From contig CM068769.1 of the NCBI GenBank assembly GCA_035084275.1, positions 930,001-994,000 of the forward strand: 64,000 nucleotides of DNA, read 5' to 3'. Source of the DNA: Hydrolagus colliei. Lineage: Eukaryota. Of this stretch, positions 11,898 to 58,915 are shown piece by piece. The position numbers and the translations under genes are program-made. Every line of letters begins with the position of its first letter. The first letter of the stretch is position 1. Below the pieces are notes generated by a model. That model did not search any database. It was not told the DNA's origin and saw only the letters and a program-made list of their open reading frames with translations.

Positions 11898-12230
11898 TCA
11901 TGAAAGGTTAAATGCACACATCAAATCCCTACCCATCAGATTACAACTCATTTGTTTTGATGATGTTATCACAAACGGATGGTACAGAGAATGGCCTCGC
12001 CATGTAACTTTAATTGGTTTAGAAATGGGACAATTAGTTCGTGACCCTCCAAATCCAGCTAATGTCTCCTTGCGATTAGATATTGGGATAGCAGGTTGCC
12101 TATGGAGGGAGGAGAATGTAGCACCTGAATCCACTAAAAATGGGACTGATTGTCCCTGTATCTCTAGGACCAGGGTTGGTTCCGATACTATTATTTGCTC
12201 CCCATCCCCGTGGTCTGGGAGCGGAGAACT
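11898..12230 (-). pseudogene. pro: ERV-A aspartic protease
   Basis: FLVDSGATFS active site and NLMGRDL; in frame with both the gag stop (12231-12233) and pol, with a TGA at 11898-11900. Confidence 0.92.
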
Positions 12231-14133
12231 TCATGACCCTGGGGAAAAATACTCATTCGATTCGCACCACTGACCCACAGGGTATTGTCCTGTTCCTTGA
12301 GGGTACTGTCCTTGAGGACCCTGTGTAGCGGACTGAGGACCCATAGGGTATTGTCCTTGAGGACCCTGTGTTGGGGACTGAGTGTGGGGACCATTATAGT
12401 ACAAAGGACCGGTGTAACCTCCCTTTGGGAACCCCTGTCCCTTGTGGGCCTCCCCCTCCTCGTTGTAACCCCCCTCCACCCCTTTGAGGACCTCCTGAAT
12501 TGTATGGTTGGGGGTAATACGAAGAATATGAAGGGGGTGGTGGTGGGCCATATGGAACCTGTCCATATTGATCCTGTGGCTGTATATAATTTGGAAATTC
12601 ATTTCTCCAATGTCCGGGCTGATAACAATTAAAGCAGACTTGCTGTCCTTGATTCCGACCACCTTTACCTTTTCCACTGTACCGACTCCTACCTCTAGGG
12701 CCGTTACCGTTACCCTCCCGTTGTTCGCCGTGGAACCCTTGAGGGAACGTAGGCGCAGAATCACTTATTACTGGAGCCTGAAAGAATTGTTCCTCTTTTA
12801 TCTTGGGAACAAGAGCTCGTTCTTCCAAATTGTCCTTCCAGAAATGTTTTACAGTCCTGTTAATACCTGCCACCGACAATGGGACCCAATCCAAATTAGT
12901 TCTTACCGATGAAGAAACCGAGGGCGGCAAACATTTCATTAACATGGAACAATACTGAGGAGACTCGCCATCACCATTAAATCCTGTCTCTCCTGAGTGT
13001 GTCGAATATACATCCTTAAACCTACTGAGGAAATCCTCAGCCGTTTCTGCTTTCTTTGGCTTCTGGTCCAGTATTTTACTTATATCTATTGGCTTTTGCA
13101 GGCATACAGCCAGGGCGTCCCTTATAGCCTGTTTTCTTGCTACATCATTATCTGCTACATGGGCCAGTAAAGCCTCGTGATCGGTCTGGTGAATAGATTC
13201 TTTAACTTTCGCATATTGACTTCTTCCCAAGCTACTCTGGACAAGACTCCACATATCCCTACTATTTCCCCCATACACTTGAATGACAGACTCTACATGC
13301 TCTATAAATCGTACTTGTTCGGTGTCCTTACTAGGTGCTCCCATTAACAAGGACATCATTTCATGAGGTTTCCATGGTGCATATACTTCTATTGTGGGCT
13401 CCTGGTTATCCTCACCCCCCCTGGGGTTAGGGACTGTTCACATAGGAAACATTTTAGGAGTCGTATGACTAAGTTCCTTAACTGACTCATCTCCATCCGT
13501 ATTACTATTTTGGCGCTTCTTATCATGTGATCGAGTGTGCTCCGCTGGGCCCCCTGAATATCCTTGCTCTCTAGGTTTTATTTGTCTGGGCTTGACCAAT
13601 GGGACTATTGGGGCTGACGGGGATATTAAATTTTCAGTCAACGGGGAAGCTACATATGGTGGAGGTATTCCGGGATATATCGGTCGGGGCGGCAGACCCC
13701 ATCTGTTTAGTGAGTCATCACTGTCGGCACTATCTATGCACATTTGTGTCAATTGGGCGCTTAGCGTCCTAAATTCTAACGACTTCTGTTCTTCCGCTTC
13801 CCTCTCTTTCTTCTTACATACCTCTTCCCTTAATTTATCCAGTGGTTTACACACCACATCATGGGTAATGCAAATACCTCGTTTCTCCGCGGTGTTCTGC
13901 CAACTAGATAATACTTCCTTTGCCTGTTTCTTTTTACTTTCCTCTAACCATATCCGCATAATTATTCGACACCTTTTATACCTGTCTTTCTTCCATACTA
14001 ATTCGTATACTTTTGTTAACACTGTGACGTCACTTGAACCTCCCAGAGGCCAAACAGTTTCTCCTAGCTGATTGTTCAGCTGGCCCGAAACCAAACGTAA
14101 TTCTTTTCGATTTTCCGGTAGTATTTTACACAT
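12231..14133 (-). pseudogene. gag: ERV-A gag (defective)
   Basis: MA ORF 13438..14133 continues in frame past one TGA (FPM*TVPNP...EVYAPWKPHEM) into CA. Single zinc knuckle CFNCYQPGHWRNEF (last Cys lost). Frameshift in the Gly/Pro/Gln-rich tail. Confidence 0.9.
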
Positions 14134-14315
14134 AGACGTGAGGGGACATGGCCCCTCAGTTTAACCACAATATTACCCATATTAGTTCTTATACTTTAAA
14201 TATTTTTCTTATGCTTTACTATTTTATTTGTCAAGACAGTAATTCCTTATACTTTACGGTAACAACCTTATACTCTAAATAAACAACCTTATACTCTGAA
14301 TCAGTGCACCTTCCT

Positions 14316-14450
14316 AACCTGCTGCAACCAGCTTGTACGCCTTTTTTATTCCGTCGACGGTCCTTACGTCGGTAAGTTTGTAACCTGCTGCACTCAGCTT
14401 GTACGCCTTTTATATCCCGTTAACGGTCCTTACCCCAGTAAGATTTCAAC
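14316..14450 (-). repeat. ERV-A leader tandem repeat (2 x ~66 bp)
   Basis: aacctgctgca...cagcttgtacgcctttt...cggtccttac repeated at 14316 and 14382. Confidence 0.85.
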
Positions 14451-14663
14451 TGAATCCACACATACCAACCTTTTCTTATTTCGATCTCATTAACAACTGC
14501 CAGTTACGAATACGGTTGGTGCATCCCCGGAAGCCTATTACATAGGTGAAAAACACTGAGAGTATTCAAAAATAAATGATATACTCACTGTGCTGGCCAA
14601 TTTCACTTAGGTAAAAACCCAGGGATTGTCCCGCCGTCTACGCACTGTCTTAGTTGTCAGGAG

Positions 14664-14681
14664 ATCCCATCCTCGTCGCCA
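14664..14681 (-). other. ERV-A primer-binding site, tRNA-Ser(GCT)
   Basis: TGGCGACGAGGATGGGAT is an 18-nt complement of the 3' end of vertebrate tRNA-Ser(GCT) (...ATCCCATCCTCGTCGCCA), 2 nt from the LTR. Confidence 0.92.
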
Positions 14682-14683
14682 AA

Positions 14684-15178
14684 TGTGAAACTCCGATTCG
14701 TCTCAGTCCCGTGGTTGGTGGTCTTGTTCACAAATATGTGACGCGGTGTGTGATTCAACCAGTTTAATCAGCGTTTGCAAAGCTTTACACTGGGTTGCTA
14801 CAGAATCTCGTCCGTTGACTCCAAAGTGTACCCCAAATACTTTAACACATGCACCTTTATACAGTTTCAATCCTTTGTCTGCCATAAATGGGCATGATTA
14901 CATATTGATTACCTTATCCGGTCAGTAACTCATTGCCTACCAAATAAGGACATGTTTATGCTATTTATATATGATTAATGTTAATTTAAATATATATATA
15001 TGGCCTTGCCATTGTTCTTGGAGTATATGAGATATAGGCCAGCTGCGTCTTACAATGACAGGATAAGCATCCACAAAAACAAGATAACAGATAAGCACAC
15101 AAGATACAGGATGAGCACACAAGAGCGTCTTACAATGACAGGATAAGCATTCACAAAAAACGATGAGCTGACATCTCA
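14684..15178 (-). repeat. ERV-A 5' LTR (495 bp)
   Basis: Pairs with 6262-6845; about 10 substitutions counted by eye in the first ~400 bp. Confidence 0.95.
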
Positions 15179-18103: not shown

Positions 18104-19924
18104 ATGCACAATTCGATAATTTGGAGACTAAAATTAATTTACTACCCGATTCTCGCTGCTGTTGGAATTCCTGGCAAGTGATTCATCCATTTCAGTATTT
18201 AGGTTAGTATGCAGTAAAGTTTGTAGCCTGACACAGTTTAACAATCTCACCTTTCAATCGCAAATGTTGGGTTGTGTAATGCTTGAAATTCCCTGTTGCC
18301 ATATTTCGGGATACTGACCAATCACGTTCAAATTAATTGAGAGGAAGTGAGTTCTTAACTGAGTGCGGTAGCGAGAATAAAACCATAATAAGACATCTCC
18401 AGTTTGCCTGCTTAGATATGAGATAGAAGGGCGCAATTGAAAAGAGAAAATAGATCATGTGAACGTGATGGAATTTTGATTGTGTGATTTTGTTTATGAT
18501 GCAATATAATACTAATTTATGTGTCTCCTTGTATCTCTGTGCCTCTCTCAGTGCGTCTGTGTATAACGCTCTGTGCAGTTGTGTCTCTGCATCTTCCATT
18601 CCTTCTATGTCTGTGACAGTCTCTATCTGAACTGGTATAGTTCTTTCTGCCGACTAAAATAACTGTGTATTTGTGACTTTCTGACTGAATCTAGTTTTCT
18701 CTACATCGTCCTGTGGATCCATTCTTTGCTTGTTTCTCTTTTTCCCTCTCTGCGTGTCAGTACATCTCCATCTGTCTGTGGATCTCTCTCTGTCTCTGTA
18801 TTTGCGTGTGATTGTGTTACGTGGTGATGGGCAGCGAGCCAGATATTTCTCCATCTCCCGTTGATTCCGCAAAATAGTGACTTCAGGTGGGAGAAGCGAA
18901 TGTAACCCAACAGAAAGTCCAGCACAAAATATATATTTAATGAGCATAAAATCAACTGAAGAAATTGGGTATTATAACTGGTCATTTTCCCCTCTCTCTC
19001 TCTGTAGCTAACATGGTGGCCATTGTGATACTGTCCCGAGGAAGGTGCGGTCTCTCCAAATGTGTCTCTCACTATTTGCTTGCCATGTCAGTGGCTGATC
19101 TGATGGTGGTAATTTTCTCGGTGATTTTCTATCGCAGTGTACTTTATTACTTCCCATATTTGTTCGTGGACATCACTCATGTTTGCCGGCTACTATCTGT
19201 ACTGCGCTATGCAGCACCGGCCATCTCTGTCTGTCTAACTGTGGCTTTCACCTTTGATCGATATGTCGCCATCTGCTGCCAACAACTGAAAACTAAATAT
19301 TGCACCGAAAAAACAGCTGCTGCAGTGATAGCGGGGCTGAGCGTGTTCTTCATTGGGGAGAGCATTCCCTGGTATTTTTCCGTTGAACCACGTTACATAC
19401 ATAACAATACATCGTGGGGATGTGTTGCTAAACTAAGCTATTTCTCGTTTCTCCCATGGATAGTGTATGACCTCCTCGACCTTATGTTAACCCCGATTCT
19501 CCCATTCGTTGTGATTCTGCTGCTCAACGCCCTGACTGTCAGGCACATCCTGGTGGGCATTCGAGCCCGCAGGAGATTGCGCGGACACAGTGATGGGGAC
19601 AGGGATAGCGGTGAGAGAGATAGTGATCCAGAAATGAAGAGCCGAAGGAAAGCCATTGTTTTACTGTTTGCGATATCAGGCAATTTTATACTGTTATGGT
19701 TGATATATACTTTATTTTTCCTGTACTGGAGAATTTCAGGGTCAAGTTACTTCTCAGGCAACAATGATCCTTTGTACATTGTTCGTCAAACTGGCTTCAT
19801 GTTGCAGCTTTTGAGCTCCTGTACGAACACATGCATTTACGCTGTTACCCAGACTCAATTCAGAGAGGAGATTAAGAGAGCGTTGACATTTCCGTTTATA
19901 CTAATTCTTAAATTATGCCATTAG
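18104..19924 (+). CDS. Class A 7TM GPCR, GPR139-like family; exon 1 18104-18173, exon 2 19008-19924, 328 aa
   Basis: Exon 1 MHNSIIWRLKLIYYPILAAVGIP joins in phase 1 to ANMVAIVILSRGRCGLSKC. FDRY motif, seven hydrophobic helices, TM7 CTNTCIY, no stops. Donor is G|GCAAGT, acceptor ctgtag|. Confidence 0.9.
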
Positions 19925-27758: not shown

Positions 27759-28307
27759 AACTTCATCCTGCAGTCCACCACCTCGTCCAATCCCTGGCCT
27801 CCTTGAAGTCCAGCCTCAAGACTCTCCTCTTAGACAGCAACGGATAAGACTCCCCTTCCAGCCCACCCCCATTCCGCAGCATGGGTTTGAAGCTGTAACT
27901 TTCCAGCGCCTTGGAACGCCGTTTCATATGGCTGTTTCATTTTTGAAGACGGTTGAGCTGGAGGTGAATATTTGTAGTGGTTTGCACATTACTCCAACAC
28001 ACTACAGTATTTCATGCCAGTTGTACTATCTAAAGATATAATAAATGGAAAGAAACATAGAACTTGCAAACTGACTCAAATGAACAGCCTCTGGACGTGT
28101 AACGCCCAATTCTTTCAGTAATTGCTGTCGGCATTTATTGTAACTTATAATGCTGTGAGTGTTTAGATGACAACCTGATGGGTGGGGAATGTGGTTTCCT
28201 CTGAGTCTGGCTGCTGAACTGTCTGCTCCCCGCAGGGCCTCAAGGCCTGACCAAGATTCCGCACACAATTCAAAAAGACGGATCGTCCCCATGTATATAA
28301 TGAAGGC

Positions 28308-28346
28308 AGTTTTTGTACGAGCCCTGCAGTGTAGTCAACCACAGTG
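28308..28346 (-). other. 23-bp-spacer RSS of the ERV-split V
   Basis: CACTGTG, 23 nt, ACAAAAACT directly after YYCAFSL. Confidence 0.9.
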
Positions 28347-28482
28347 GAGAGACTAAAGGCACAGTAATACACTGCGCTGTCAGATACCAGCAGCTCAGCG
28401 ATGGATAAACTGGTAGAAAAACTGAATGTCTGTAGTTGAGCAGAGAAACGGTTTCCAAATCCTGTGCCTTTGACTTGATTGC

Positions 28483-29230
28483 TGTGAAACTAAAAAATCG
28501 TCTCAGTACCTTGGTTGGGGTTTCTGTTCACAAATATGTGACTCGGGTGTGTGATTCAAACAAGTTTATTTAGCATTCATGAAGCGGTGCACTATGTTGC
28601 TACAGACTCTCGTCCGTCTACTACTAGTGCACACCAACTACTAGTATACACACATCTTTATACAGTTTCAATTCTTTGTCTACCATATATGGGCATGGTT
28701 ATACATTAATTACCTTATTTGGTCAGCAATATATGGCCTTGCAGTTGTCTTACAGAAACATCATGGCCTAGGAGTTAATGAGATATAGGCCAACTTCATC
28801 TTACAACAAGATAAGCATACAGACATCATGGCCTGGGAGTGAATGAGTTATAGGCCATAGGCCGGCTACATCTTACAACAAGATAAGCATATAGACATCA
28901 TGGCCTGGGAGTGAATGAGTTATAGGTTATAGGCCGGCTACAGCTTACAAGTATAAGATAGCCTAAAAGCAAGATGATAACGAAGCCTAGAGCTTTACAA
29001 TTATATCATAGCCTTGGTATGCCTGCCAGACACCCTTATGGCCCCTGTTATTCGCATCTTTTTGTAACAGGCTCACAGGTGTCGGCTAGAGGTAAAATCA
29101 AAGCGTAGTACAGGTTTGCAAGTAACTATTATGCGTAACGTACGTACAGGTTTGCAAGTAACTATTATGCGTTGCGTAGCTGACGAGCAAATAACCACTA
29201 TTCGTACATGGCAGACGAGCTGACTTCTCA
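28483..29230 (-). repeat. ERV-B 3' LTR
   Basis: No difference from 34812-35559 found by eye; TATAAA and AATAAA on the minus strand; U3 tandem repeats. Confidence 0.95.
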
Positions 29231-29262
29231 TTCCTACCTTTTTGTCATTCCATGACAACCTG

Positions 29263-30645
29263 CTACTCGAATGCTGAGAAATCATCGTCAGGAGCCATGT
29301 ACAACATTGCTGCCGGGGCATCCCAGCCTGTCATCATAGATAGTATAAGTTTTTTAAATAAGGGTAAACAACAACATAATACATCTGCCAGGATTATAAC
29401 AATTATGTTAATAAATGTCAAAATTTTAGTCATCCAACCGCTAATCGACCAATCGGTCAACCAACCCCATATACCAGGGCTTACGTCAGTCTGATGCAAT
29501 TCTCTGACTTGTTGTCGGATGTATTGTACAATATTAGTAATATTCTCAGAAGCATCCGGAATATAGGTGCAACATTCAGAGCCAATCAAGGCACAAGTGC
29601 CTCCCTTTTCAGCAAGCAATATATCCAGAGCCATCCGGTTTTGGAGGGTTACAGTGCGAATAGCCACCATTTCAGCGGATATGTCTTGTAAGGCATCCGC
29701 GGTTGCATTCGCAACAGCCTCCAAAACCGTTTGTAAAGCCCCCAATGCTTGATTAGTACGGAGCAGACCGTATGGGGGCACAAATACCCCAAAAATCTGT
29801 TCGTACCTTGCTACTGCTCTACGTGTGATATGGTTTTTTGTATGCGGGTGTTCCGAAAGTTTTGTAATATGCAGGTGTGGGACAACATGTCCAAGGTAAC
29901 AGGAACCACTCCAGCTGGTTGGCAGCCATGGGTATGCCCAAGTCCCGCACACCCAGTATATCCCATTAAATGAGGGTACTGGGTGGTCTGGGGGAGTAAT
30001 GTGGATGATTGCCTCGTATTGGCTGCCCGTCACCTTACAAGAAGTATCATTGAGTGAGATGGTCGCCGAATCCTGCCGACTGGTGGCATTTCCTAATTAC
30101 AGAGAATATGAACAATAACTCTCTCCCACTTTTGTCCCTGGGCCTGTTCGTATTATACAAACACTTCCATCTGTTTTCTCTACCTTGATATGTGGTGGTT
30201 TTTGTGTGCAGTTATAATCTTGACGGTACATAGTATTATTGAGGGGAGAACAGGAAACTGTCTCATTAGTTAGCAAACCAGTCATATTAATACCCGATTG
30301 TTGCAGAGCCCGTATTGTCTGCATTTTGCTGAAAGGGACTATCAACATGGGAAAACCCCCTCCCGCACTGTGTGGGAGAGCCGCACACACCCAACAGCTT
30401 GATACTCCCAGCGTCACCGTTGTTTTGTACGCAGTGAGGAGAAAAGTATTTGCTACTATGGAGCATTCTACTTCTGTGTCCAGCATCATCCCCAATATCA
30501 TCAGAATCCCTGTCCATTTTGCAAGGCTGAAATGTGGATATCGTAGGCCCTGCCCAAGCAGTCTCTGTTTTTCTGATCGTGTCGGCCCACTTCGTCTCCC
30601 GAAGGCATCGAACGTCTTCCACCAGAGTGACAGGTAGTTCTTCAT
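29263..30645 (-). pseudogene. env: ERV-B env (460 codons, single nonsense codon)
   Basis: One continuous frame from MKNYLSLWW with CWVC, ITRR/AV, LQNRMALDILLAEKGGT, CX6CC and a TM anchor; the only lesion seen is CAA>TAA at 30097-30099. Confidence 0.93.
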
Positions 30646-30762
30646 CGCCAACGTCCACAACTTCTTCGAGCTTCTTTCCACGACGTCTTCGAGCCTGTAG
30701 GAACAAAATTGTACCCTAGGACGGGACAATGGTGAAGGCAGTAGCATCATGTTGTTTACACT

Positions 30763-32320
30763 TCATGATTGTTTACACTCAAGTCGTTTACAATCATGTA
30801 TGTGAACCCAATGATCTCTCCCCTCTAATTTAACCACAGTTGGAGTTGAGAGGAGAACTTGGAAAGGACCTATCCACCGGGGGTCCAGGCATTTCCTGAC
30901 CCAATTGCGAATCATAACATAATCACCGGGGTGTAAAGGAGGATCAGGTAAACTAATATTGTTAGAGGGACTGGAAACTGTTGTTTGATTAATACGGAGA
31001 CTGGTAGAAAGAGTTTTGATATACTCCACCATGTCAGCAGACATATGAGTAAGCGAAGAGGAAGCCGAAGCCGACCAAGGGCCTATTAAAGAGCGCCCAT
31101 AAATAATTTCTGCTGGAGATAACCGGGCAGTTCCAGTGGGGGCCGAGCGAATCTGAAACAATACAAGAGGCAAAAGCGGACCCATGAAGAGCCATGCCCC
31201 CTTGTAAGTTTAGCCAGTTTTGTCTTAATCGTCTGATTGACTCGTTCCACTATGCCCGCCACTTTGGGATGATAAACACAATGAAACGACTGTTTAATGT
31301 CTAAATGGGAACAGAGAGAACGGTTAACAGAGGCAATAAAGTGAGGGCCGTTGTCGGAAACTAAACGACCAGGCACCCCAAAACGAGGAATTATTACCCG
31401 TAACAACAATCGCACAACCGTCTCAGCAGTATTGTTTGCCGTTGGAAATGCTTCAACCCAACGGGAAAATACATCAATGATAACCAATACATAGTTGAAA
31501 TTCTGACATTTAGGTAACTAAATAAAATCCACTTAAAGCACCTCAAATGGAAGTTGAGGTACAGGGGTAGCACCGGTGACCACTGGGAACCCTTTCCCAG
31601 GATTGTGCTCAGAGCACAACAGGCACCGGAGGACAGCTTTCTCAGACAGCTGCATCATGCATGGGTGTCACCAGGTCTGTAGTAGCCACTCAGAGAGCTG
31701 TTTACCCCCCGAATGAGTCTGTTGGTGACCGCAGGCGACTACCCATCCTGCCAGCTCATCAGTCATGCAGGTCTGACCGACAGGGGTCATCCAGACCCCT
31801 TCCTCGGATAGGGCACAGCCTTCTTCAACCCATGACTGACGAGTTGCCACCGGACCGTCCTCCTGGAGTAACACAATATCATAAACAGAGGGTATGTTAG
31901 TACGTTGTTTGGGAATAATGGGAACCACAGTTTTAACTGGATAGGTACCAAGTGGGGCCTCAGCCACTAGTTTGGCACATCTATCCGCATGTCCATTTCC
32001 AAGTGAGACCGGATCCTGGGCCAACGTGTGGGCAGAACATTTCACAACTGCTAACTGAGCAGGTTGCAGAGCAGATTGTAGGAGGTTGACAACTTCAGTA
32101 CCGTTAGAAATGGGATGACCTGATGAAGTTAAAAATCCACGGTTTTCCCACAACCTCCCAAAATCATGAACCACGCCAAAGGCGTAGCGAAAGTCAGTAT
32201 ATATGGTAACCGGTTTTCCCACAGCGTGTTTACAAGCCTCCTCAAGGGCAATTAGTTCACAGGCTTGGGCAGATTTAGGAGGAACCAGTTTCTTCATACA
32301 GACTGGGTTCCATCCTGTAA
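30763..32320 (-). pseudogene. pol: ERV-B pol 3' remnant (RNase H C-terminal part and integrase)
   Basis: Colinear with ERV-A 8270-9865; several stops and frameshifts. Confidence 0.92.
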
Positions 32321-34043
32321 GGAGCTGGAGTGAAAAGTATAAGTTATCCCAGAAGAAGTGGCTGCATGAAATGCCATTCTTGTCAGTATCTGTAAGAACT
32401 AAATTACAAGGTGAAATCTCACGTTTCTTTAAACATTTTCAGTTGTTAACATGACATCATCATTACCTACAGAAACACTTTCAGTTGATGTGGAAACCAA
32501 AGGGTTACGTAAAGTCATTTTGTCCACATAAACCAGAGTGCCTGCAGTCAGTGAATTTAAACTGCCCACAGTCAATGGCTGCAGTAAATTCTAACTGCCG
32601 CAAGTTAACTGCCACAAGCTAATTTATCCATATTTAATTTCTACAAACATTTTAAGTAAATGCTGGAATATACAAAATATATGATACATAAAATATATCA
32701 GGCTTCATTTTTAAAAAAAGATCTTATATCTTCAAAGTTTACTCTATCGCTTCGTTCTTGCGTCAAATATTCCAAATTATTGGTTGTATTTTTACTTTGC
32801 TATTACTCAGTACATATGGAACGTGGGTAGTGTCTGGCTTATACTCTGCGTCCAGAGAAAAGTCAGACCTATCACGGTCCGGTACTTTTTAAATAATCCA
32901 AACCTATGGAACATGGATGAAATCTGGCCATACTCTGCGTCCAGAGCAAAGTCAGACCCACCATTGTCCACTTTAAATGCATCCATTACATAAACCATAC
33001 TTCAATTTGCTTTCTTTTTTTTAATTACTGCTCATTCAAGCTAAACCATATACAGGTACAAACATTTTGTTACACACATCTTTTACACAAAAAAAAGGTA
33101 ACAGATTGAGCTCAAGTCTTCTTAAGGACCGTACAGTCACAACTTCCTTCGGGGAAAAACTTTCAATTAGGAGTATTGTGACTGTTCGGATTGCTCTTTT
33201 TAAAGAATAGTTAGGGAGGCACAAGTCTATCAATAATATGCAGAGTGGCCTCAAACACATGTTGTGACTTTTGGCCTTCCCCAAATACTCATTCAAAGGG
33301 TCGCAACATACCCCATAGAGACCGTAAATTTAGGTAGCAATTGCTTAAAATTTGTTTTTTTTTCACCTGACATTTTGTCATCACACTTTCTTTTTAATCA
33401 GAACAAGTGGTGTTATTGGAACATCAAATCCAAATTATTTTCATTTCAATTTTATGTGTTTTTACGTATTAAAAAAACGTATTCTCAGTCAGGTTAATTA
33501 AAAAAATTATGCCTGACTTGTTTGAATTTTCAAACGTAAGTTTCTACATTTAATTTTGTAATCAATTTTGTTTTAATCAATATTCATTTGGTTTTCGACT
33601 GTCTGGTCTTTGACTTTCATTTATCTGTTGTAGCATAACATAGTTAAACATATAAAACACAGTAAATATATATTGTTTTACCAATACATACTCTCCTCAC
33701 ACACTAACATCAACACTTATTAATTCTAGCCGTTACCGTCTTTCTCTTAACTACCGAATACTCTCCTGTGTTTAGTGCCACTGAATATCCTGTCGACTAC
33801 GCCATTGTTAGAGATTCGACCATGAGTGAAATGCACTAGAGTCGTATCTCATCAAAACAGGTTGTTTATTCAGGCTAACCCGTCAGGGCTTGATACCAAA
33901 CACGGGGATCCCTTAATGGTGTATACTGTCCAGCAAGAGATTGATTCTTTATCCTCTGCAACCTAATACTCTCCTCTGTTTAGTGGTGTATACTGTCCAC
34001 CCCAATACTCTCCTCTGTTTGGTGGTGTATACTGTCCACCCCA
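32321..34043. other. Unidentified AT-rich insert replacing gag-pro-RT in ERV-B
   Basis: No recognisable similarity to ERV-A between gag codon ~21 and RNase H (LQDG). Internal repeats: 39 bp x2 (33965-34042) and an ~89-bp-period pair (32812-32958). Confidence 0.8.
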
Positions 34044-34108
34044 TTGTTTTTTAACTGACCCGAAGCTAATCGCAACTCTTTCTGATTTTCTGGCAACACT
34101 TTACACAT
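34044..34108 (-). pseudogene. gag: ERV-B gag stub
   Basis: MCKVLPENQKELRLASGQLKNN versus ERV-A MCKILPENRKELRLVSGQLNNQ; homology then stops abruptly. Confidence 0.85.
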
Positions 34109-34376
34109 AGACGTTAGGGGACACGGCCCCTCAGTTTTATCCACAATATTACCCATACTTTTGAAATTCTTATACTTTAATAATAAAAAAATTACAACCT
34201 TATACTTTAAACTAAAAATTCTTATACTTTAAATCTTATTCCTTACAACCTTAAACTTTAACTTACAACCTTATACTTTAAACTAAAAATTCTTATACTT
34301 TAAATCTTATTCCTTACAACCTTAAACTTTAAACTAAATTAACCTTAAATTCTAAACTAAACCTCGTGCACTTTTG

Positions 34377-34570
34377 AACCTGCTGCACCCAGCTTGTACG
34401 CCTTTTTTATCCCGTTAACGGTCCTTACCCAGTAAGATTTGAACCTGCTGCACCTAGCTTGTACGCCTTTTTTATTCCGTCGACGGTCCTTACCCAGTAA
34501 GATTTGAACCTGCTGCACTCAGCTTGTACGCCTTTTTTATCCCGTTAACGGTCCTTACCTCAGTAAGTTT
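34377..34570 (-). repeat. ERV-B leader tandem repeat (3 x 65 bp)
   Basis: aacctgctgcac at 34377, 34442 and 34507. Confidence 0.88.
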
Positions 34571-34791
34571 TTAACTGAATACACACCCACCAACCTTTTC
34601 TTATCCCGATCTCATTAACGACTATCAGTTACGCATACGGTTGGTGCATCCCCGGAAGCCTATTACGTAGGTGAAAAACACTGAGAGTATTCAAAAATAG
34701 ATGATATACTCACTGGGCTGCGCAATTTCACTTAGGCAAAACAAACCCAGGGATTGTCCCGCCGTCTACGCACTGTCTTATTCGTCACGAG

Positions 34792-34809
34792 ATCCCATCC
34801 TCGTCGCCA
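34792..34809 (-). other. ERV-B primer-binding site, tRNA-Ser(GCT)
   Basis: TGGCGACGAGGATGGGAT, identical to the ERV-A PBS. Confidence 0.92.
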
Positions 34810-34811
34810 AA

Positions 34812-35559
34812 TGTGAAACTAAAAAATCGTCTCAGTACCTTGGTTGGGGTTTCTGTTCACAAATATGTGACTCGGGTGTGTGATTCAAACAAGTTTATTT
34901 AGCATTCATGAAGCGGTGCACTATGTTGCTACAGACTCTCGTCCGTCTACTACTAGTGCACACCAACTACTAGTATACACACATCTTTATACAGTTTCAA
35001 TTCTTTGTCTACCATATATGGGCATGGTTATACATTAATTACCTTATTTGGTCAGCAATATATGGCCTTGCAGTTGTCTTACAGAAACATCATGGCCTAG
35101 GAGTTAATGAGATATAGGCCAACTTCATCTTACAACAAGATAAGCATACAGACATCATGGCCTGGGAGTGAATGAGTTATAGGCCATAGGCCGGCTACAT
35201 CTTACAACAAGATAAGCATATAGACATCATGGCCTGGGAGTGAATGAGTTATAGGTTATAGGCCGGCTACAGCTTACAAGTATAAGATAGCCTAAAAGCA
35301 AGATGATAACGAAGCCTAGAGCTTTACAATTATATCATAGCCTTGGTATGCCTGCCAGACACCCTTATGGCCCCTGTTATTCGCATCTTTTTGTAACAGG
35401 CTCACAGGTGTCGGCTAGAGGTAAAATCAAAGCGTAGTACAGGTTTGCAAGTAACTATTATGCGTAACGTACGTACAGGTTTGCAAGTAACTATTATGCG
35501 TTGCGTAGCTGACGAGCAAATAACCACTATTCGTACATGGCAGACGAGCTGACTTCTCA
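34812..35559 (-). repeat. ERV-B 5' LTR
   Basis: 748 bp, identical by eye to the 3' LTR. Confidence 0.95.
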
Positions 35560-35769
35560 TTGCCACCCCCAGAATATCTACGGACTATAAACTCTGGGTG
35601 TTTGTCTGGGTAATTTCTGTACCAGTAGAGATAGTAATTGCTAGCAGTAGTGGAGTATGTGCAAACCAGATCGTCAGTATCTCCTTCTTTCTTAACATCG
35701 TTGGCAGCTTTCTGACTCACAGAATCGGCGACACAGAGTTCTGCAATAAACGAGGGAAAGCACGGCTAA

Positions 35770-36005
35770 ACATTCATAGAATCATAGAATCTTAAGGCAC
35801 AAAAGGAGGCCATTCGGCCCGTCGAGATTGTGCAGGTCCTTAGAAAAGAGCAGCTCAATCCCACTCCCCAGCTCTCTCTCTCTCTTCATAATCGTGCCTC
35901 CCCAAATAAACCCATCCTCCCCAAACAAACGTCTACCTCTCTTTCGAAAGTCCTTTTCGAATCGGCCTCCACCAGCGTTTCCAACAATGCATTCCAGATA
36001 CCAAC
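35770..36005 (-). mobile_element. CR1 3' fragment in the leader-V intron
   Basis: catagaatcatagaatctta...gaggccattcggccc; the same insertion is present at about 54880 in the paralogous intron. Confidence 0.75.
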
Positions 36006-36807
36006 AAATCGATGAGTTAACACAATTCTAACCACCTCCCCTTTGCTTCCTTTAGATACTGTCTCAATTAGATCGTCTCAATTGCGGACTGATTGCTCTG
36101 TTAACTCAGCTACAGGTCTCTCTCCATCAATTGTTGTTGAAATGGAGCTGACAATCAACAGCGACACAGAATTAGCTCAACACGACCTCACCTGCCGTAA
36201 AGGTTGCCAGCACTAGACAGACAGCAAGCAGCCTCATTGCTGCTCCTCAGCCTTCGCTGTTGTGTCTGTGACATGAGTGTGTTGATAGCCAGAAGAGATT
36301 GTCGACATTGGGGGAGCCCAAAGCCTCACATCAACTGATTGACATCTCAAACACCAATTGTTTGATACAGTGAAATGCACCAGTTAGTCTTGTGGTGTGG
36401 TAGGGTGTGTATATTTGAGGGGGAGGGGGGGGTGGAGGATGGAATCCTCACACTCTGCTCATGTGAACCATACAGTCAAATCATAGTATACGGGATGTTG
36501 ATCGTGATAATCATTCAATTTGATATAGTGCCTCACCGCATCTACTAGACGTGTCTCCAATCACTTCACGAAGTATATCATTAAGTAAGATGGCTGTTCA
36601 TTTTTTCGGTGAAATGCAGCAGCAAATTGCCCACATCACAGCGCTTTTCACCTCTTTTCGACGTCTCAAACCGATTCACGCAATCAGTATAATAGGGTAT
36701 GTGAGAGAAGCAATGTCAACCGTAACAGGAAACACCTGCGATATATAGTTACAGAAAAGCACATGGAAGTTATATCAGTTGCAGCTGATGTTATATGTGT
36801 GTTTAGT

Positions 36808-36821
36808 GCGCCACCTGTTCG
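36808..36821 (-). promoter_or_regulatory. Putative CTCF site (degenerate paralog)
   Basis: CGAACAGGTGGCGC with an upstream CTGCA; homologous position to 58902-58915. Confidence 0.35.
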
Positions 36822-38879
36822 CGGTGTGCAGCTACAGCAGGTTGACAATGGATATATTTGAAAGCAAATTGTTATTTTCTGTCTTCAATTCTCTCGTTCT
36901 TTCTCCTACCGTGGAAGAATATACCTTCGTCTCGTTTCCCTGCTTGTTCCTCATTTTCTCCAAGCTTTATCAGAACATTGGTCGCGAATTCAATCCACAA
37001 TCTCTTGTCGTATTCATGCTTATACAACCCCACCCCACATTCCGCAGACCACACCCAACTACTTAAGTTAATTATTTGACTATTGCCTGTACCTGTTTAT
37101 ATCATTTGATAGAACATTGAGTTGATATTGGTCATGTTACAGTATCGCAACAACAAATATACATCTATAAAGCGTTATTCACAATGGGGGGAGTTGCAAA
37201 GTCACTATATTCACTCGGCAGATTATTTATTTGAATACTAAAATGTGCAAATTATTTTCATTATACAGTACTGATTTACATGAAGAATACAAATGGTGTC
37301 CTCTCTTTGCCGCATCGCCGATAGGTAGCATCGTGTGTTTAGTGTGCACTTTGATTCCAGGCGTTAATTGAACCAGTTATACGTGGACAACGTGACTGAG
37401 TTAATCAATAATCCAAGTCTCGTAAGGAGAGCATTCCGAACCTCATGTTTTTGACAGAAGACACAGCAGTGAACCACAATGTGCTTGCGAGTCACATTGA
37501 TGTTACAGCGTTAGATACAGCCAAACCTGAAGCGATGAACGTGTTTTGTTAGTGAATAAAACTGTGCCCTAAAGCTTTGCAAGTTTCCGACTAAATCCAT
37601 CTCCATTTCCCCCTCCCCTCATCCCACACCAATTACATCTCCTAATATTCGCCTTTAAAATCTTCCAATACGACAGCTCCTCTTGTCACACGACAGTTCT
37701 GGAACAAGCTCCGTCACTGATAATCACTGTTGAACACTGTCCAGCACGAAATGCGCTTAATGGAACAGGATAAGTCCATTCAACCCCCTGCAGATAGTTC
37801 GGAGATTCTATTACATAATTATCACCATCTCCCCCATACTCGACCAAATACATTCGCTCCCAATCATCCAGATGATCCAATTCAAGATAATGGTCATCGC
37901 GTTTAAAGCCCTTCACAACCTCTCCACACCCTACATCTGTGAATTGTAACACATTATAATTCTGCTTGCCCTCTCCGCTCAGCAGATTCTAGCCTGCTCA
38001 TCGTCCCCCGACCAACCTGTCCAAAGAAAGGCGAATGGGCGATCCTTCAGCCCATCTGCAGCAAACTCTGGAACTCCATCCAGCAGTCCCTCCGCTTCGT
38101 CCCCTCCCTGACCTCCTTGAAGTCCCGCCTCAAGACTCTCCCCTTTCGATGGTCCCATCATCAACGACTAATCTCCCACTTCCCAGCACCTCACCACCCC
38201 AACCCCACATCCCCGTGGAATGGATACATCAAGTACAGCCTTCTGGGGAAAACGGCTCCAGATTTCACTACTCTTTGTTTGAAATAAATGCGTCCAGACT
38301 TGTCTGGCAAACGATTGCCTCCGCCTCGCCCTGGTACGCCTTCGATTGCCCCTGATGCCCTAATCCCTGCCCACCACTGTCCTCATCTTGGCAATGAAGC
38401 AACAACTGTCCAGCGACTTGGAGTGTCCCCTTTACACAAAAGGCATTAACTAAATGTATGTTTCTTGTTGTTGTTTAATACTCCCTCCATTCACAAGTGG
38501 AAATTTTCCCTGACACCGCAGGACGCAATTTATATCTAAGCGATATAAACATATATTAATGATTTTTATGTGTACCTACTTTGTGATTCACCGCAGAAAA
38601 GCACGTGCATGTGGCAGTGCTCTCCAGTTTGTTGTTGATTGTACAACAGTCTTATGCTCAAACAGTTATTATTATTTGATTAAGGGATGATTTTCCCAAA
38701 CAAATAACAAGTCAATCGACATCCAAGCGGGTTCCTAGTTACCGCGAGGCAAAAAGAGGCGTGTGGGTAAAATAAAGAAGGTACATGTACAGTACAGAAT
38801 GTTTTGCTCTGCAATGAATGGAACCCATGTGCTTGCAAAGCGAATGCTGTAACCACTGAGCTGCAGGCCTCAGCATGTG

Positions 38880-39603
38880 GGTTTTTGTACGGCAGGAACA
38901 CTGATCTGTTCCTCTGTGGGGCTCAGCGCACAGTAGTACACAGCAGAGTCTGTCACTGTCACTATGGATATATTCAATGGCACGGTTCCCCGCGCTTTAT
39001 CCAAATTCTTTGAGAAACGTTTTTGTTTCTGCAGGAATTCTGCAGGATATTGCTTGTTGTTGCTGGTGTATACGTAAACGATATATTCTGGAGGTGTGTT
39101 GTGATAGTGACGGTACCAGAACATAAATGGATCGTCTCTGCTTGTGGCTGTACAATTACACAGCAGATAGGCAAATTCTCCTTCATTCACTGTCACAGTA
39201 GATTGGAGCTGTGTCACAGAGTCTCCTCCACAAAGCCCTGGAAACCGGAAACCCATAATCATTCAATAAAACAGCAACAATTCCAATCGTCCTCTTTTGT
39301 TTCATACGGCGATTTATTAAATCGTTGGTACGTCTCCATTCAATTCACAGAATAAAATTTGCAAAATCAATACAGTTTGTGATACGATTCTCCCTGTCCT
39401 GCCAGGGAATCGATTCGGCCGTGAAGCCAGTCCTATAAACACTGAAATAATGAACACTCCAAATCCTGAAGCTCTTTTCCTATTATTATATAGCTTATGC
39501 GATAAAACATAGGCATTGGATAATACATTCGGAAAGAAATACAGATAGAATGCTTACCTGACAAGGTGATGAAGACTACTGCCGCATAGATATACATTGC
39601 CAT
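38880..39603 (-). CDS. Open TCR alpha/delta-type V segment (family 2); leader 39558-39603, V exon 38919-39237, RSS 38880-38918
   Basis: MAMYIYAAVVFITLS-GLCGGDSVTQ...LLCNC...FWYRHY...DSAVYYCALS; GT-AG intron in phase; CACAGAG, 23 nt, ACAAAAACC. Confidence 0.92.
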
Positions 39604-39900
39604 GTGTACTTAATGGTACGCTTTGCGGGAAGAGTGTTGATAGTGTAGTTGGAGAATGTTGTCTGGGAGGCAGTAAGGCCTTGTGAGGAGGGCTGAACAG
39701 TGAATGACAGAACAGTGAATTGCCATATACTGCGAGAGAGCTTGTCTGAGGTTTACTTATAACAACGTTTGTTTATGTCACTCAGCGTCATTTGTTCTGC
39801 TCTGCGCTCTCGCTCATCCATTGGTTGTCGTCCAACACTGACATGTCTTTGATCAACCTGGTGCCTCAAACATGCAGCAAGTTCCACCCAAAATCCAATT

Positions 39901-41340
39901 TCAAGTCGTCCAAATACATACATGATATTCGAAGAGGAAAGTCTTCAAATCGGCCTTGAAAGAGGAAAGGGAAGAGGCGAAACGGAGGGATTGAGGGATG
40001 GCATTCCATAATGTGGGAGCGGAGAAACTGAAGGCCCGGCTTCCGATGGTGGGGCGGTTCGGGCGGGGGGCTTGGAGCAGGCTAAGTCCTGTTGAACGGA
40101 GGGTCCGGGTGGGCGTGTAGGGGGAGATTAGATCGGTTAGGTAGGATGGGGCAAGGCCGTGTAAGGTCTTGTAGGTGAGGATGAGGATATTAAATTCGAT
40201 GCTCTGGAGGATGGGGAGCCAGTGGAGACGGGCGAGGGAGGGAGTTATGTGGTCACGGAGGCGGGTGCGGGATAGTACACTGGCTGCAGAGTTTTGGATG
40301 GCCTGCAGCCTATGAATGGAGGAACTGGGGAGGCCGACTAGGAGAGAATTTCCGTAATCCAGCCGTGAGGTGATGTAAGCATGCACAAGTGTAGTGGCAG
40401 CGCGGGGGGTAAGATACTTGCGGAGCCTGGCAATGTTGCGCAGATGGAAATAGGCGGTGCCGGTCAAGGCGCGGATGTGGGGAGGAAGGAAAGTTTTTGA
40501 TCGAACATGATGCCGAGTTTCTTGATTGGCTTTGTGAGGTGGAGAGTGCAGCCTTGGATGTTGAGGCTGGCAGCGCCCGATGTGCGGAGGCGCTGGCTTG
40601 AGCCAATCAGGAGGGCCTCGGTCTTATTCACGTTCAATTGCAAAAAGTTGTCCCTCGTCCACGATTCGATGTCGGACAGACATGCTGTCAGAACATCGAT
40701 CGTCTGGGGGTTGAGGGATGAGGCAGACAGGTACAAATGGGTACCATCCGCATACATGTGAAAATTTACCCCATGGCTGCGGATGACGTCGCACAGGGGA
40801 GCGTGTAAAGGGTGAAAAGAAGGAGACAGAGGACAGAGCCCTGAGGGACGCCGTGGGAAACTGTGCGTGGGTTTGAAGAAAAGCCATTGGAAGAAACAAA
40901 ATGTAAACGGTGGGTCAAATAAGAATGGAACCATTCAAGGACTGTGCCTTGAAGGTTGAGGTGGGAGGAAAGACGTTGAAGGAGGATGGTGTGATCGACT
41001 GTGTCGAACGCAGCAGACAGGTCAAGAAGGACGAGGAGGCAGAGGGAGCCCTGGTCCCAGGGGGTTAGAATGTCATTTGTGACCTTAACCAGGGCAGTTT
41101 CTGTACTTTGGATAGGGCGGAAATCTGATTGGAGGGGTTCAAGAAGTGAATGATTTGAAAGGAAAGAGCGGAGCTGGGAGGCAACCACTCTTTCAAGGAC
41201 CATGGATAGAAACGGGAGGTTGGAGATGGGTCGATAACTTGATGGTTGCGACCCATCAAGGGAGGGTTTCTTCAGGATAAACAGTTTCTCTGTTCCCCTT
41301 TTGTCAGATACTATTTTAACATTCGTTGCGCTCATGATAA
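39901..41340 (-). mobile_element. L2 LINE ORF2 (RT) fragment, frameshifted
   Basis: LLDLSAAFDTVDH, GVPQGSVL, YADG and the C-terminal SRLDYGNSLL/LHWLPI motifs across three overlapping ORFs. Confidence 0.92.
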
Positions 41341-41499
41341 TGTGATCTCTTTGTACATGTCATTTGCCTCTTCGCTGTAACCATTCTACTAAGTCGCCTT
41401 TCAATAATGTCCAAGATTTTAATATCCTTCTTACCCTGTCAAAAAAAGACACTAGAGAGCCGCATTTCACCTAAGCCATACCGTTTCTCTAATAAAAAT

Positions 41500-41860: not shown

Positions 41861-42438
41861 AATCCTTTTAGATACGTACACATGTCTCATCCTTGTAAGT
41901 GATTGTGATATCCATTGAGCTATAATCCACAATAAAATAGCATTCTTAAAGTATTCCATACATCTCAAAGCACATCACGAACCACACCGCAAGTCTAGTT
42001 GAATTTATTGTTGATTAAAAGTGTTCCAGAAATTTGCTTTGAGATTTCTCAAAAAGGCCAAATGCAAATATTATTATCAGTATTGTTGTCATCTCTGAAA
42101 ACACAACAATTTATTTAACGGTTGTTTGACCGATTCTATACTTGTTTGCTGTAGCAGATTGCCCCCATTGAAGCCTTGGTTGTCTGTGATTATGGGAATG
42201 TTTAGCAGAGATTCAAATGTCAGTGTACACAGTTAAATCTGTTGAGTTAAAGTTGAGTGAAATGGAATTCCCCTCTCTAAATGTCGTTACACTAACATCG
42301 CTGCTGGACGAGTTGAATGGTGTCACTGGCTTGTTTCCAATATCAGTCGTCTCTCAGTCATTTGTGTTAGAAGAAAACTGCTTTCCTTAAAGAATTGTAA
42401 ATCATTGCTTGAATATATTTCTTTGTCTCTTTGCCTCT

Positions 42439-42931
42439 NNNNNNNNNNNNNNNNNNNNNNNNNNNNNNNNNNNNNNNNNNNNNNNNNNNNNNNNNNNNNN
42501 NNNNNNNNNNNNNNNNNNNNNNNNNNNNNNNNNNNNNNNNNNNNNNNNNNNNNNNNNNNNNNNNNNNNNNNNNNNNNNNNNNNNNNNNNNNNNNNNNNNN
42601 NNNNNNNNNNNNNNNNNNNNNNNNNNNNNNNNNNNNNNNNNNNNNNNNNNNNNNNNNNNNNNNNNNNNNNNNNNNNNNNNNNNNNNNNNNNNNNNNNNNN
42701 NNNNNNNNNNNNNNNNNNNNNNNNNNNNNNNNNNNNNNNNNNNNNNNNNNNNNNNNNNNNNNNNNNNNNNNNNNNNNNNNNNNNNNNNNNNNNNNNNNNN
42801 NNNNNNNNNNNNNNNNNNNNNNNNNNNNNNNNNNNNNNNNNNNNNNNNNNNNNNNNNNNNNNNNNNNNNNNNNNNNNNNNNNNNNNNNNNNNNNNNNNNN
42901 NNNNNNNNNNNNNNNNNNNNNNNNNNNNNNN
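42439..42931. other. Assembly gap (493 N)
   Basis: Run of n characters; the ORFs with X residues are artefacts. Confidence 1.
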
Positions 42932-44189
42932 TTGGCTTCATTCCTTCTTTCCTTCTTTCTTTCCTACCTTATTTCCAACCTTCTTTCGTTTCTTTCCTTC
43001 ATTCTTTCTTTATTCCCCTCTCTCACTCCACTACCCTCCCTCACTCTACCCCTCTTTGTTTCTCTCTATTACACTTTAGGTTAGTGTTACAACGTTCAAT
43101 TCTTTACATGTTGGCAAAATACGCTGGCGATGTTCAATATCTATTTGCTTTTTGATGTAGAACAAAATAAGTTTCAGCTGGAACACGCAACGTAAATGGA
43201 GAGACGAAAGTGAGTGAACGTTTCAAGCTGTTGACTTGTATTCAGACAAGGTGGTGTTTGAATTAAACTGTTTCTAGCACACTTCATAATGAATCCAATT
43301 AATTTCCCAGAAAAGTTGACTTGTCGAGACAAATTAGGGGAAGAACATTTGAAATACGCTATTGCAACTAACATATATTGGGTTAGTTAGTTACCTAGTG
43401 TACCCTCAACTTGTCCTCTGGTCTTGCTGCTTTGGAAATCATTTCCAGAAATATTCACCGACTTTATAAAACAATGAAATACGCGTAGTTCAGCAAAGAA
43501 ACAAGTCTCATTGTGGGAGCTGTACAATTGTTTGAAAATCGCGCACATACGTTTCAGGCTTCAGAAGTGGATTGTTGAATTGACAAAGTTGCAAAAAACT
43601 GGGAGTAGTCTGTTAGAATAATGCATTTTAGAAATTTAACAAAATCAATAAATAAATGAATAAAGTTTTATTTTAAGTTGACATAAATTATCCACACTTA
43701 CTTTTTGTTACCATGACTTTGGTTCCTGATCCATCTAAATTATTTGGCTTATAAGACCAGAGTCGCACAGCTCTCGTTATGCAAGGTGCAAAAACTAATC
43801 TATCTGATTATGATTGAATAATGCCACAAACTGGAACTAAATGTTAACAAGTTGGTTAATAGTTTCTGCATCTCTGCCACTGTCTCGTCAACCTACATTC
43901 ATTTCTTCCAAATCTGGTCTAATTTCAAGATAATGTCCACCCAACACGAACAAATTCCCTCGCCCAGAAAACATCTTTCAGTAACTAATTATAGAATTTT
44001 CTACTTGAAAAGGCTAACTCGGAAAGCAAACATCTGACAAATTTAGCGTAATAAAAGCAGATACAATAATTATTGTTCATGTACAATGTATTTCCATGTA
44101 AATAGCTACCCGGTTTTTATCTTGATTGATTCCAATGTGCCTTCCCATCAACTTACCAGAGTAGTTCCTGTCAACACAAATATATTGCG

Positions 44190-48635: not shown

Positions 48636-49610
48636 TTTTTATGTGCGGTGGCGTAGCCTGAAGGTAACACTGTGCGAGTGATCACACAATAGTATGTGGC
48701 TGAATGAGCTAGAGCCACGGCCAGCACAGTTACACTGGATGACTTGCTGTTCATGTCCAAACTCGTGGTGAAAAGACCTTCAGCAAATTCAGCTCTGAAA
48801 GTGGCCCTATCATAATCATGTCTCAAAGTGTAAAGAAGAGGCTCTCCTGGATAGTGACGGTACCAGTACATCAGAACATTGGTGAAAACAGCAGATTATG
48901 TCCATCTCAGGGTAACAGTCTGGACTTCACTGACAGACACTTCCCTCTGTGATGGTTCAACAACATCGCGATTCGCTGTCGCTGTAGCCAGGAAAAATAC
49001 GTTACGACCAAAAAAAAAAATTCTACATTGATCTAACGCCATTCACGTCAGTAGGACGTCCCAAGGCGCTGAATCGATAGGCCGGGACCCGAGCGGGATG
49101 GAGTGGTGTGATGGTTCAGTGTAGTGGGAATGAAAGTAATCGAGCGGGGAGAGTAAGGAGGGGAGCACAAGGCACATTCGACGAGGAAATTCTTGAGACC
49201 GGTCTTGAAGTAGGAACGGGAGGAAGTGAGGCCAAAGGATTGCGTGTTGAAATTCCACAGTTTGGTGGCAGAGAGCCTGAAAGCCTTTCCACCGCAGGTA
49301 GGGCGATTCGGGCCGGAACTTGGAGCAGCCCAGAGCCCGCTGAATGGAGGAGACGAGTAGGTTCGCAGGGAGACAGCAGGTCGGAGTGAAAGGCAGGTGC
49401 ACGTTTGTGAATGGCCTTGAAAGTGAGGATGATGATCTTGAATTTGACCCTCTGGGTGATGGGGTGCCAGTGGAGACGGGCAAAGGTGAGAGTGATGTGA
49501 TTGCAAACACCAGAAATACATCCAGAATTTGTTTCAATAGCGAGAGTAGGTTGCGTACATACAAGGACCAATAACATTGAAATGAGCAAAGCAATGTTTT
49601 TATTCTCCAT
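48636..49610 (-). pseudogene. TCR V pseudogene (family 3); leader 49559-49610, V exon 48675-48981, L2 in the intron
   Basis: TVTLRWT* stop, then MYWYRHYP...SATYYCVITR; CACAGTG, 23 nt, ACATAAAAA. Confidence 0.9.
49040..49505 (-). mobile_element. L2 LINE 3' fragment in a V intron
   Basis: LHWHPITQRVKFKIIILTFK is the L2 ORF2 C-terminus, followed by the tail. Confidence 0.85.
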
Positions 49611-50349
49611 GTGTCCAAACGATGAATCAATTCATTCGATGGGAGCAGTTGAGATGATTGGTTGTGTCGGATTTGTGCTTGGAAGCAGAGTGATACGCCT
49701 CTGTATCAGATGACAGTAGTTTCAAACCCCACCACCTGATTTGTGAACTCTGTTTGATGAGTTGACGAACCAACCCCTTGGGACGTACAACTACCAACCT
49801 AAATTGCTTCTTGTTGTTCTAACGCAATGCTGGCAGTTTAGTGCATTGTGAAATACTATAGTATATAATACTAATCAGATCACAAGCGAGACCCAAAGTA
49901 GTGCACTTTAATTACTTTTTGTGGTGGAACATTTTGCTAATAATAGCAATAATAACAATCCCTTTTCTTATTAATAGTATAGAACCCTAATCCTAACGCT
50001 AATATGATTATTATATCAATAATAATCCAACTTTTATGATCGTGATTTATTAATGGATTATAATTTGGCGTGTGTGTGGAGTAAGGAAACTTACCCAAAC
50101 TTTCGCTATGATTTGCCTGGATTCGATCACATGTCTAACTCTTGTAAGGAAAGTGTTCTAACCACCGAGATACAGAAGCTCCACTGTTTCAGAATGAAAC
50201 GTGATAGGTTATCTTAGACGCAGCTCATGTGATGTGTGTCTTTATTGCGCCATGTGCTGCTGGATTAGATCTACAATATCTTTACAATTGTAGACATTTG
50301 AAAGCAAACTTGGTTGAACTGTCCTAACATTTGACTGCGATGTGCACTA

Positions 50350-58070: not shown

Positions 58071-58901
58071 TTCAATCAATCAATGAATCAATCAAAACTT
58101 ATATTTCTACAGCGTCTTTCACGTCAAGAGGACGCCGCAATGCGCTGTACACTTAGGTAGGGACAAGAGTAGGGGAAGTGGACTCGGCGCAGAATGAAGA
58201 AGAGTAGGAAATTTGACTTTATGTGGACGAAACGTGTCAACAAAATTGTGCAAAGCAGTGTCCCATAACAGTAATTGAATTGGGACTAAGGAAAAGGGCG
58301 GCAATATGGCAAGAGGAGGTGTTTGAAGGGGAAACGAGAGTAGGAAAGCCGAATGTATACTTGTGGGCGAAACGTGGCAGCATATTGCACTCAGAAGTGT
58401 CCCACAAACAGGTGGAGAAATGGGGTCAGGCGTTAAAGGGTTAAAGAGGGAAAGGAGGGAGAAGGAGGGAAAGCTGGGGTGTGGAACGCTCAGGGAGCAA
58501 GAGGGGGGAGAAAAAGGGCGTAAGGGATCGAGGGAGCGAAAGTTGGGTGTGTGGTAAGATCAAGGAGAAATTGGGTTCAGAGAGTAGAGGGAGGGAAGGG
58601 GAAAAGACGGGACAACACAGGTCTCACACTTGTAAGGCGAGTTCTACAAACATTGAGTTCCACAATATTTCTTGTGACTGAAAGGCAATGAAATACATCT
58701 AGTGCAGATTGCATTTTGATCAACAAATGCCTTGTGTTAATCAGTTTATTGATAAAGCTTTGTGCAACTCGGATCAAGCAGCAATAATGTATGTGAGGGA
58801 AGCAATGCCAACTGTAACAGGAAACACCCGTGTTAGCTGCCAATGATGTTATATACAGAAAAGCACTGGCAGTTGCATCTGATGTTATACGTGTGTTTAC
58901 T

Positions 58902-58915
58902 TCGCCACCTGGTGG
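58902..58915 (-). promoter_or_regulatory. Putative CTCF site
   Basis: CCACCAGGTGGCGA matches the CTCF core consensus, with an upstream CTGCA. Confidence 0.55.

Follow-up and report, generated by a model that had tools for sequence, protein, structure and literature searches.

A T-cell receptor alpha/delta-type V gene of a cartilaginous fish split by a young and probably non-autonomous endogenous retrovirus

[quoted passage not shown] ERV-B is 7,077 bp long (28483-35559, minus strand) and lies in the same sense as the V gene. Its long terminal repeats (LTRs) end in TG...CA, and a 4-bp target duplication, TTGC, was found on either side of it (28479-28482 and 35560-35563). The parts of the split gene are as follows.

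36192..36237, minus strand: leader exon L1, 15 codons plus G with a phase-1 GT donor; the leader resembles that of the Callorhinchus milii homologue by eye
35741..36191, minus strand: leader intron, containing a dispersed repeat (35776-35999) that is also present in the paralogue at 54531
35560..35740, minus strand: 5' part of the V exon, with L2, framework region 1 (FR1) and its Cys, CDR1, FR2 with Trp, and most of CDR2; one target-duplication copy makes up the final 4 nt
28347..28482, minus strand: 3' part of the V exon, FR3 with YYC, in-frame Met absent; the second target-duplication copy makes up the initial 4 nt
28346-28308, minus strand: recombination signal sequence (RSS) with a 23-bp spacer, CACTGTG-23-ACAAAAACT, one mismatch in the heptamer and one in the nonamer

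When ERV-B and one TTGC copy were removed, the V gene read open with both cysteines and the tryptophan present, and the joining of L1 to exon 2 gave an in-frame splice and 119 codons. The original prediction had placed the provirus in CDR2 with a TTGC duplication and had held that its excision restores an open V with both cysteines, Trp and a 23-RSS, all of which was confirmed by the sequence checks. The range that it gave for leader plus V, however, ended at 35740, which fits the V part but not the leader, because 35740 is the acceptor of exon 2 and L1 lies outside. The ATG immediately upstream of exon 2 was considered as a start and rejected, since it is intronic and a stop comes next. The split leader, the conserved Cys-Trp-Cys and the 23-spacer RSS of a TRA/TRD V segment were all present. 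The RSS had been called intact, which holds for the 23-spacer arrangement but not strictly for the heptamer, whose form CACTGTG is non-consensus, though identical in the paralogue at 54531. Upstream of the leader, no motif resembling a cAMP response element was found among the motifs tried.

An uninterrupted V of C. milii, the sole match among two candidate proteins, aligned with both halves in register (43/57 residues identical over 17-73, and 36/44 over 76-119). Since both V halves are collinear with this homologue, the provirus had a clean gene as its target, and the assembly is unlikely to be wrong here. In searches of the PDB, about 42 of the best 60 matches of the 5' half were named TCR alpha chains, while the 3' half and the whole domain brought multi-domain antibody constructs to the top and did not discriminate the V class. 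The gene hit by ERV-B is clean and was otherwise lesion-free before the insertion, which supports the earlier claim that an otherwise open V was knocked out by a co-oriented provirus.

The provirus itself is made up of the following parts.

34812..35559, minus strand: 5' LTR, 748 nt, with the first poly(A) signal on the path of V-promoter transcripts
34792..34809, minus strand: primer-binding site, the same in the related provirus ERV-A
34043..34135, minus strand: first 31 codons of gag, the sole part of gag matching ERV-A
33787..33804, minus strand: second, internal primer-binding site, following an LTR-like end (TAACA); a 17/18 match to the tRNA-Ser(AGA) gene of the window plus CCA
32325..33786, minus strand: AT-rich stretch replacing gag-pro-reverse transcriptase (RT), starting at the second primer-binding site; GC 0.36 over 32380-34150
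30769..32324, minus strand: RNase H and integrase remnants (Pfam RNase_H, rve, MLVIN_C) with in-frame stops and a frame change
29263..30640, minus strand: env remnant (TLV_coat) whose surface-subunit part holds one in-frame stop
29231..29243, minus strand: polypurine tract, preceding the 3' LTR
28483..29230, minus strand: 3' LTR, 748 nt, the same as the 5' LTR; TATAAA at 28662 and AATAAA at 28570

The two LTRs showed 0 differences over 748 nt, the exact repeat extending to 750 nt with two chance bases, and the 3' LTR ended 136 nt from the RSS heptamer; both observations had been made before and stand. When the V frame was continued into the 5' LTR, a stop was reached after about 45 LTR codons. 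Recombination between the LTRs would not restore the gene, as had been foreseen: the 752 nt left behind are not a multiple of 3, and each of the three LTR frames is filled with 15-20 stops. The first primer-binding site is of a type that we take to be tRNA-Ser(GCU).

The Pfam matches of the interior, TLV_coat (E-value 4e-17), MLVIN_C (6e-13) and rve (1e-18), indicate an env of gamma type and an integrase with a C-terminus of MLV type, and the same search found no RT domain in ERV-B. Judged from its sequence, ERV-B is unable to mobilise itself, with most of gag, pro and RT gone and with pol and env broken, a defect that the original prediction had not mentioned. It lacks the coding capacity for replication and retains the cis signals, as non-autonomous LTR elements of the ETn or D-type kind do. 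The second primer-binding site, for which the chance expectation is 1e-4, suggests that ERV-B may be a chimera. Neither tblastx nor blastn detected a remnant of the ERV-A gag, pro or RT in the AT-rich middle, which probably derives from another LTR element; related sequence was present in sequencing run X10 of organism B. In recombinant proviruses of the recKoRV type, a young LTR and env surround an interior from another element; ERV-B shares with them a resemblance only. Its own env and integrase, and tentatively the RT of ERV-A, point to class I (gamma/epsilon-like); ERV-B would be a non-autonomous, chimeric element from a young family.

ERV-A (6262-15178, minus strand) is an older relative of ERV-B with a CTTC target duplication and an 822-codon pol frame, and its gag, pol and env are broken. 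Its LTRs showed 11 differences over 495 aligned sites plus indels, and ERV-A is therefore older than ERV-B. Identity between the two proviruses along pol-env varied from 75% to 98.5%: a 600-nt part of env was 96-98.5% identical, while the neighbouring parts reached 75-92%. This uneven env identity suggests that the ERV-A and ERV-B families may have recombined. The ERV-A pol scored 425 bits on the gammaretroviral RT/RNase H p80 structures, 171 on Pr125Pol (presumably a foamy virus protein) and 92 on Ty3; its best database matches were skate and catshark proteins (54-55%). A tRNA-Ser(AGA) gene (4587-4669, plus strand) and a tRNA-Trp(CCA) gene (5536-5609, minus strand) were found just past ERV-A.

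The abundance of ERV-B was estimated from sequencing runs, of which 13 were listed; five of these, from two samples of organism A, contained over half of the sequence words. No RNA run was among those listed, which carries no information on expression. Contigs from 4 of the 13 runs were placed on 27780-34180, an interval that covers one LTR only. All of the 12 interior pieces listed with 0-2 differences had a depth 69-143 times that of the one flank contig that each run provided (three organism A runs). These approximate figures cover env, the pol remnant and the AT-rich middle, a piece of which (33699-33851, 0 differences) reached 91 times the flank depth in run X4, and would make the defective structure itself the one that was amplified. 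One LTR piece with 0 differences stood at 218 times the flank, or 1.86 times the interior mean. The depths suggest roughly 70-140 (about a hundred) near-identical ERV-B-type copies, contig depth being a rough proxy and not a strict copy number, and the ratio of that one LTR piece in one run suggests that solo LTRs are few in the ERV-B family.

ERV-B of the window differed from the abundant pieces at 9 of 1,524 letters (~0.6%). If these nine differences had arisen after the insertion, about 8.8 LTR differences would be predicted, and 0 were observed (P ~1.5e-4); this dates the defects of ERV-B to before the insertion, unless the LTRs were evened out by conversion. For 0/748 differences the 95% ceiling is 0.4%, which corresponds to 0.9 million years (Myr) at a mammalian rate, to 9.1 Myr at the rate that PMC4422223 (excerpt) assumes for sharks, 2.2e-10 per site per year, and to ~2.9 million generations at 7e-10 per generation, the rate measured in PMC10587355. 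The term 'young' is thus safe for ERV-B. The original prediction had called the knockout very recent, which goes beyond what LTR identity supports and holds only loosely, since the shark rate leaves room for up to about 9 Myr (95% ceiling).

In the window eight V segments were found, together with one remnant; the minus strand carries all of them. Two of the eight are open (38918, 61463), five (26534, 46202, 48674, 54531, 56865) have been broken by a stop, a frameshift or the loss of a cysteine, and one is split by ERV-B. Both other window members of the split gene's V family are dead; further paralogue contigs with at least 90% identity were present in the sequencing runs. The open genes at 38918 and 61463 (minus strand) make up a second family, in which both genes have a leader exon and the nonamer of either 23-RSS is perfect, and lie in a duplicated unit (36691-39930 versus 58783-62475). 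The pseudogenes at 46202, 48674 and 56865 (minus strand) form a third family, in which the first-cysteine position is Trp in 3/3 and the RSSs are still recognisable. Fragments of a repeated retroelement, LINE-like as a guess, were seen at 39901-41359 (minus strand), 49043-49705 and 55117-55737; an RT domain was matched by one of them, and one such fragment lies in the leader intron of the paralogue at 54531. At 42001-44000 the GC content falls to 0.27, with open reading frames stacked on either strand at 42261-43155; this is probably a simple repeat. An open G-protein-coupled receptor (GPCR) frame (18950-19924, plus strand), some 6.6 kb downstream of the last V, belongs to a large chondrichthyan 'GPR139-like' family (2,250 matches at 1e-40); its top identity among 120 listed matches was 64%, to C. 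milii. This GPCR, the V gene and the ERV-A pol all indicate a cartilaginous-fish host, probably a chimaera. Given that no J was found in a further 26 kb, the V array may end at this GPCR, facing away from J-C.

Several differences between runs were noted near the 3' V half. At 28033 run X4 (sample S2) differed at full depth, while X1 and X2 agreed with the window, and sample S2 therefore carries a different flank haplotype. The window letters at 28399 and 28415 were in no X4 contig and in one contig each of X1 and X2, bearing in mind that contigs drop variants. A 1-kb record in X1 and X2 had 25 differences from the window over 28105-28279; its assignment to the paralogue at 54531 was rejected, as the gapless count gave 47 differences. 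Run X10 (organism B) had no cover over most of env or the U3 part of the LTR, missing cover not being evidence of absence.

We consider it highly probable that a non-autonomous class I ERV inserted in sense into a working TCR alpha/delta-type V exon of a cartilaginous fish and turned the gene into a pseudogene. The element would have been copied in trans by a helper provirus as one of about a hundred near-identical copies, and would already have been defective on arrival. Transcripts from the V promoter would now end in the 5' LTR, either at its poly(A) signal or in LTR stops. With 7 kb added between the V promoter and the RSS, accessibility could drop rather than rise. The RSS may occasionally still be cut, giving dead joins that would be replaced by secondary alpha rearrangement. 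Mouse Tcra undergoes rounds of secondary rearrangement (PMC2212846, excerpt), and by analogy a non-productive join at this RSS would therefore be replaceable. Loss of the V would be tolerated because its family has other members.

Several points weigh against this explanation. Contig depth is not a strict copy number, each run offered one flank contig, and the LTR ratio came from a single piece of a single run. No provirus able to act as a helper was observed; the window's ERV-A is a relative but is also broken. The LTR identity could also stem from gene conversion or from smoothing during assembly. The insertion took away the window's sole open member of its V family and may have had consequences. 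No J motif was found on either strand within the 64-kb window and no C lies in it, which bears on alpha versus delta use and on orientation.

An old insertion, whose LTRs were equalised by gene conversion or assembly collapse, would be in keeping with the decayed interior and its ~0.6% distance from the abundant pieces. However, the decayed middle is itself at high depth in X4, so the decay belongs to the family; moreover, the V halves are free of lesions, and a U3 letter missing from most placed contigs is common to both LTRs, as if templated at reverse transcription. We therefore regard an old insertion as quite unlikely. That the element was placed in the V wrongly is extremely unlikely: although assembly is difficult where a high-copy repeat lies within tandem duplications, the exact 4-nt duplication on both sides (chance ~0.004), the TG...CA ends and the closing of the frame in register with the homologue speak against a misassembly. 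Compatible with the favoured explanation is that the insertion is still polymorphic, so that animals differ in this V. The identical LTRs, the otherwise lesion-free V and a family that is young by depth ratios agree with a segregating allele, and identical LTRs together with polymorphism are common in young ERVs (PMC10435555, excerpt); slow chondrichthyan clocks (PMC4422223, excerpt; PMC10587355), however, permit an age of Myr, enough for fixation by drift. The V/LTR junction was bridged by no listed contig piece and no listed loose end entered the other V half, in a listing that omits 6,847 pieces and 477 loose ends. Segregation at this site, which the original prediction had raised, is plausible, though its chance is put short of even, and the combination of a family still mobile with a polymorphic site is possible but on the whole doubtful.

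The 3' LTR might also serve as a V promoter in thymocytes that keeps the RSS open and diverts a measurable share of V-J joining into dead products or sterile LTR-V-J-C RNA. Its TATA box lies in the same sense ~315 nt from the heptamer, and the RSS agrees with the family form. Against this, occlusion and methylation of 3' LTRs are common, and the LTR AATAAA at 28570 comes after the TATA box and before the V half. All three ATGs past the TATA box reach a stop within six codons, none of the ATGs from the 3' LTR leads into the V frame, and the V half has no Met. In mouse, the activity of Tcra/Tcrd V promoters tracks V use (PMC2212846, excerpt) and a promoter is needed for Trbv1 joining, but elongation through Trbv1 is dispensable for recombination (both bioRxiv 10.1101/2024.10.13.618029, excerpt). 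Several point-mutated V pseudogenes in the window keep good RSSs, so a dead V with an RSS is unremarkable. A decoy RSS of this kind is quite unlikely, the 3' LTR is expected to yield a sterile transcript at most, and the earlier proposal that LTR read-through makes the dead half-V a decoy or gives truncated V-J-C transcripts is unsupported. Very unlikely as a whole is the boldest combination, in which a chimeric RT-less family is still spreading, the insertion segregates, and the 3' LTR acts as a substitute V promoter with a dead RSS competing for J segments.

With insertional pseudogenisation as the preferred explanation, the event is well preserved but of a known kind, and is in all likelihood the ordinary loss of a gene. 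Mouse ETn and cattle D-type ERVK[2-1-LTR] elements resemble ERV-B in having no working genes, in knocking out host genes and, for ERV-B putatively, in being copied in trans (PMC1331978, PMC10924933, excerpts). ETns act mostly in sense through premature polyadenylation, with the orientation of the gene in 15/16 cases (PMC1331978, excerpt), and the same is proposed for ERV-B; new insertions in cattle are mostly of defective elements (PMC10924933, excerpt). Unlike ETn and the D-type elements, ERV-B is putatively class I, has a cartilaginous-fish host and keeps env and integrase remnants. The CmiERVs of the elephant shark are likewise chondrichthyan proviruses with pol and env, lineages II/III being epsilon-like, but their LTRs differ by 2.4-3.3% (54-75 Myr; PMC4422223, excerpt), in contrast to 0/748 in the RT-less ERV-B, which is far the younger. 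With the invading ERVs, 'ERVi', ERV-B shares identical LTRs, but its genes are not intact and it is therefore not one of them; the ERVi host list in the excerpt of PMC10435555 comprises 37 orders and no cartilaginous fish, 13 such genomes having been screened.

Birth-and-death evolution of TRAV/TRDV likewise leaves dead V genes beside live paralogues within duplicated units (37% pseudogenes in bovine TRAV/TRDV; PMC4289303, excerpt). The split V differs from those usual pseudogenes in that its lesion is a provirus inside the exon and not a point change, and the remaining gene is clean. An antigen-receptor exon has been lost through retroelements before, in opossum IgD (PMC12269197, excerpt), and the excerpt of PMC12227049 holds no orientation data for the TRA/TRD locus. 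No report of a provirus inside a TCR V exon or of an LTR-driven RSS was found in the literature search, outside whose scope lay most subscription journals, including much of the shark TCR work.

The locus is a tidy example of V gene death, but its greater interest lies in the young burst of a retrovirus in a cartilaginous fish. ERV-B marks such a burst in a slow-evolving lineage whose described proviruses are tens of Myr old. If the LTR drove RSS use, the locus would test whether any nearby promoter licenses a V for RAG, and the boldest combination, if true, would amount to a promoter swap made by nature, one that tests RSS accessibility in the oldest lineage to have RAG-based receptors. A polymorphic site would provide TCR V presence/absence alleles together with evidence of live retroviral movement in cartilaginous fish.

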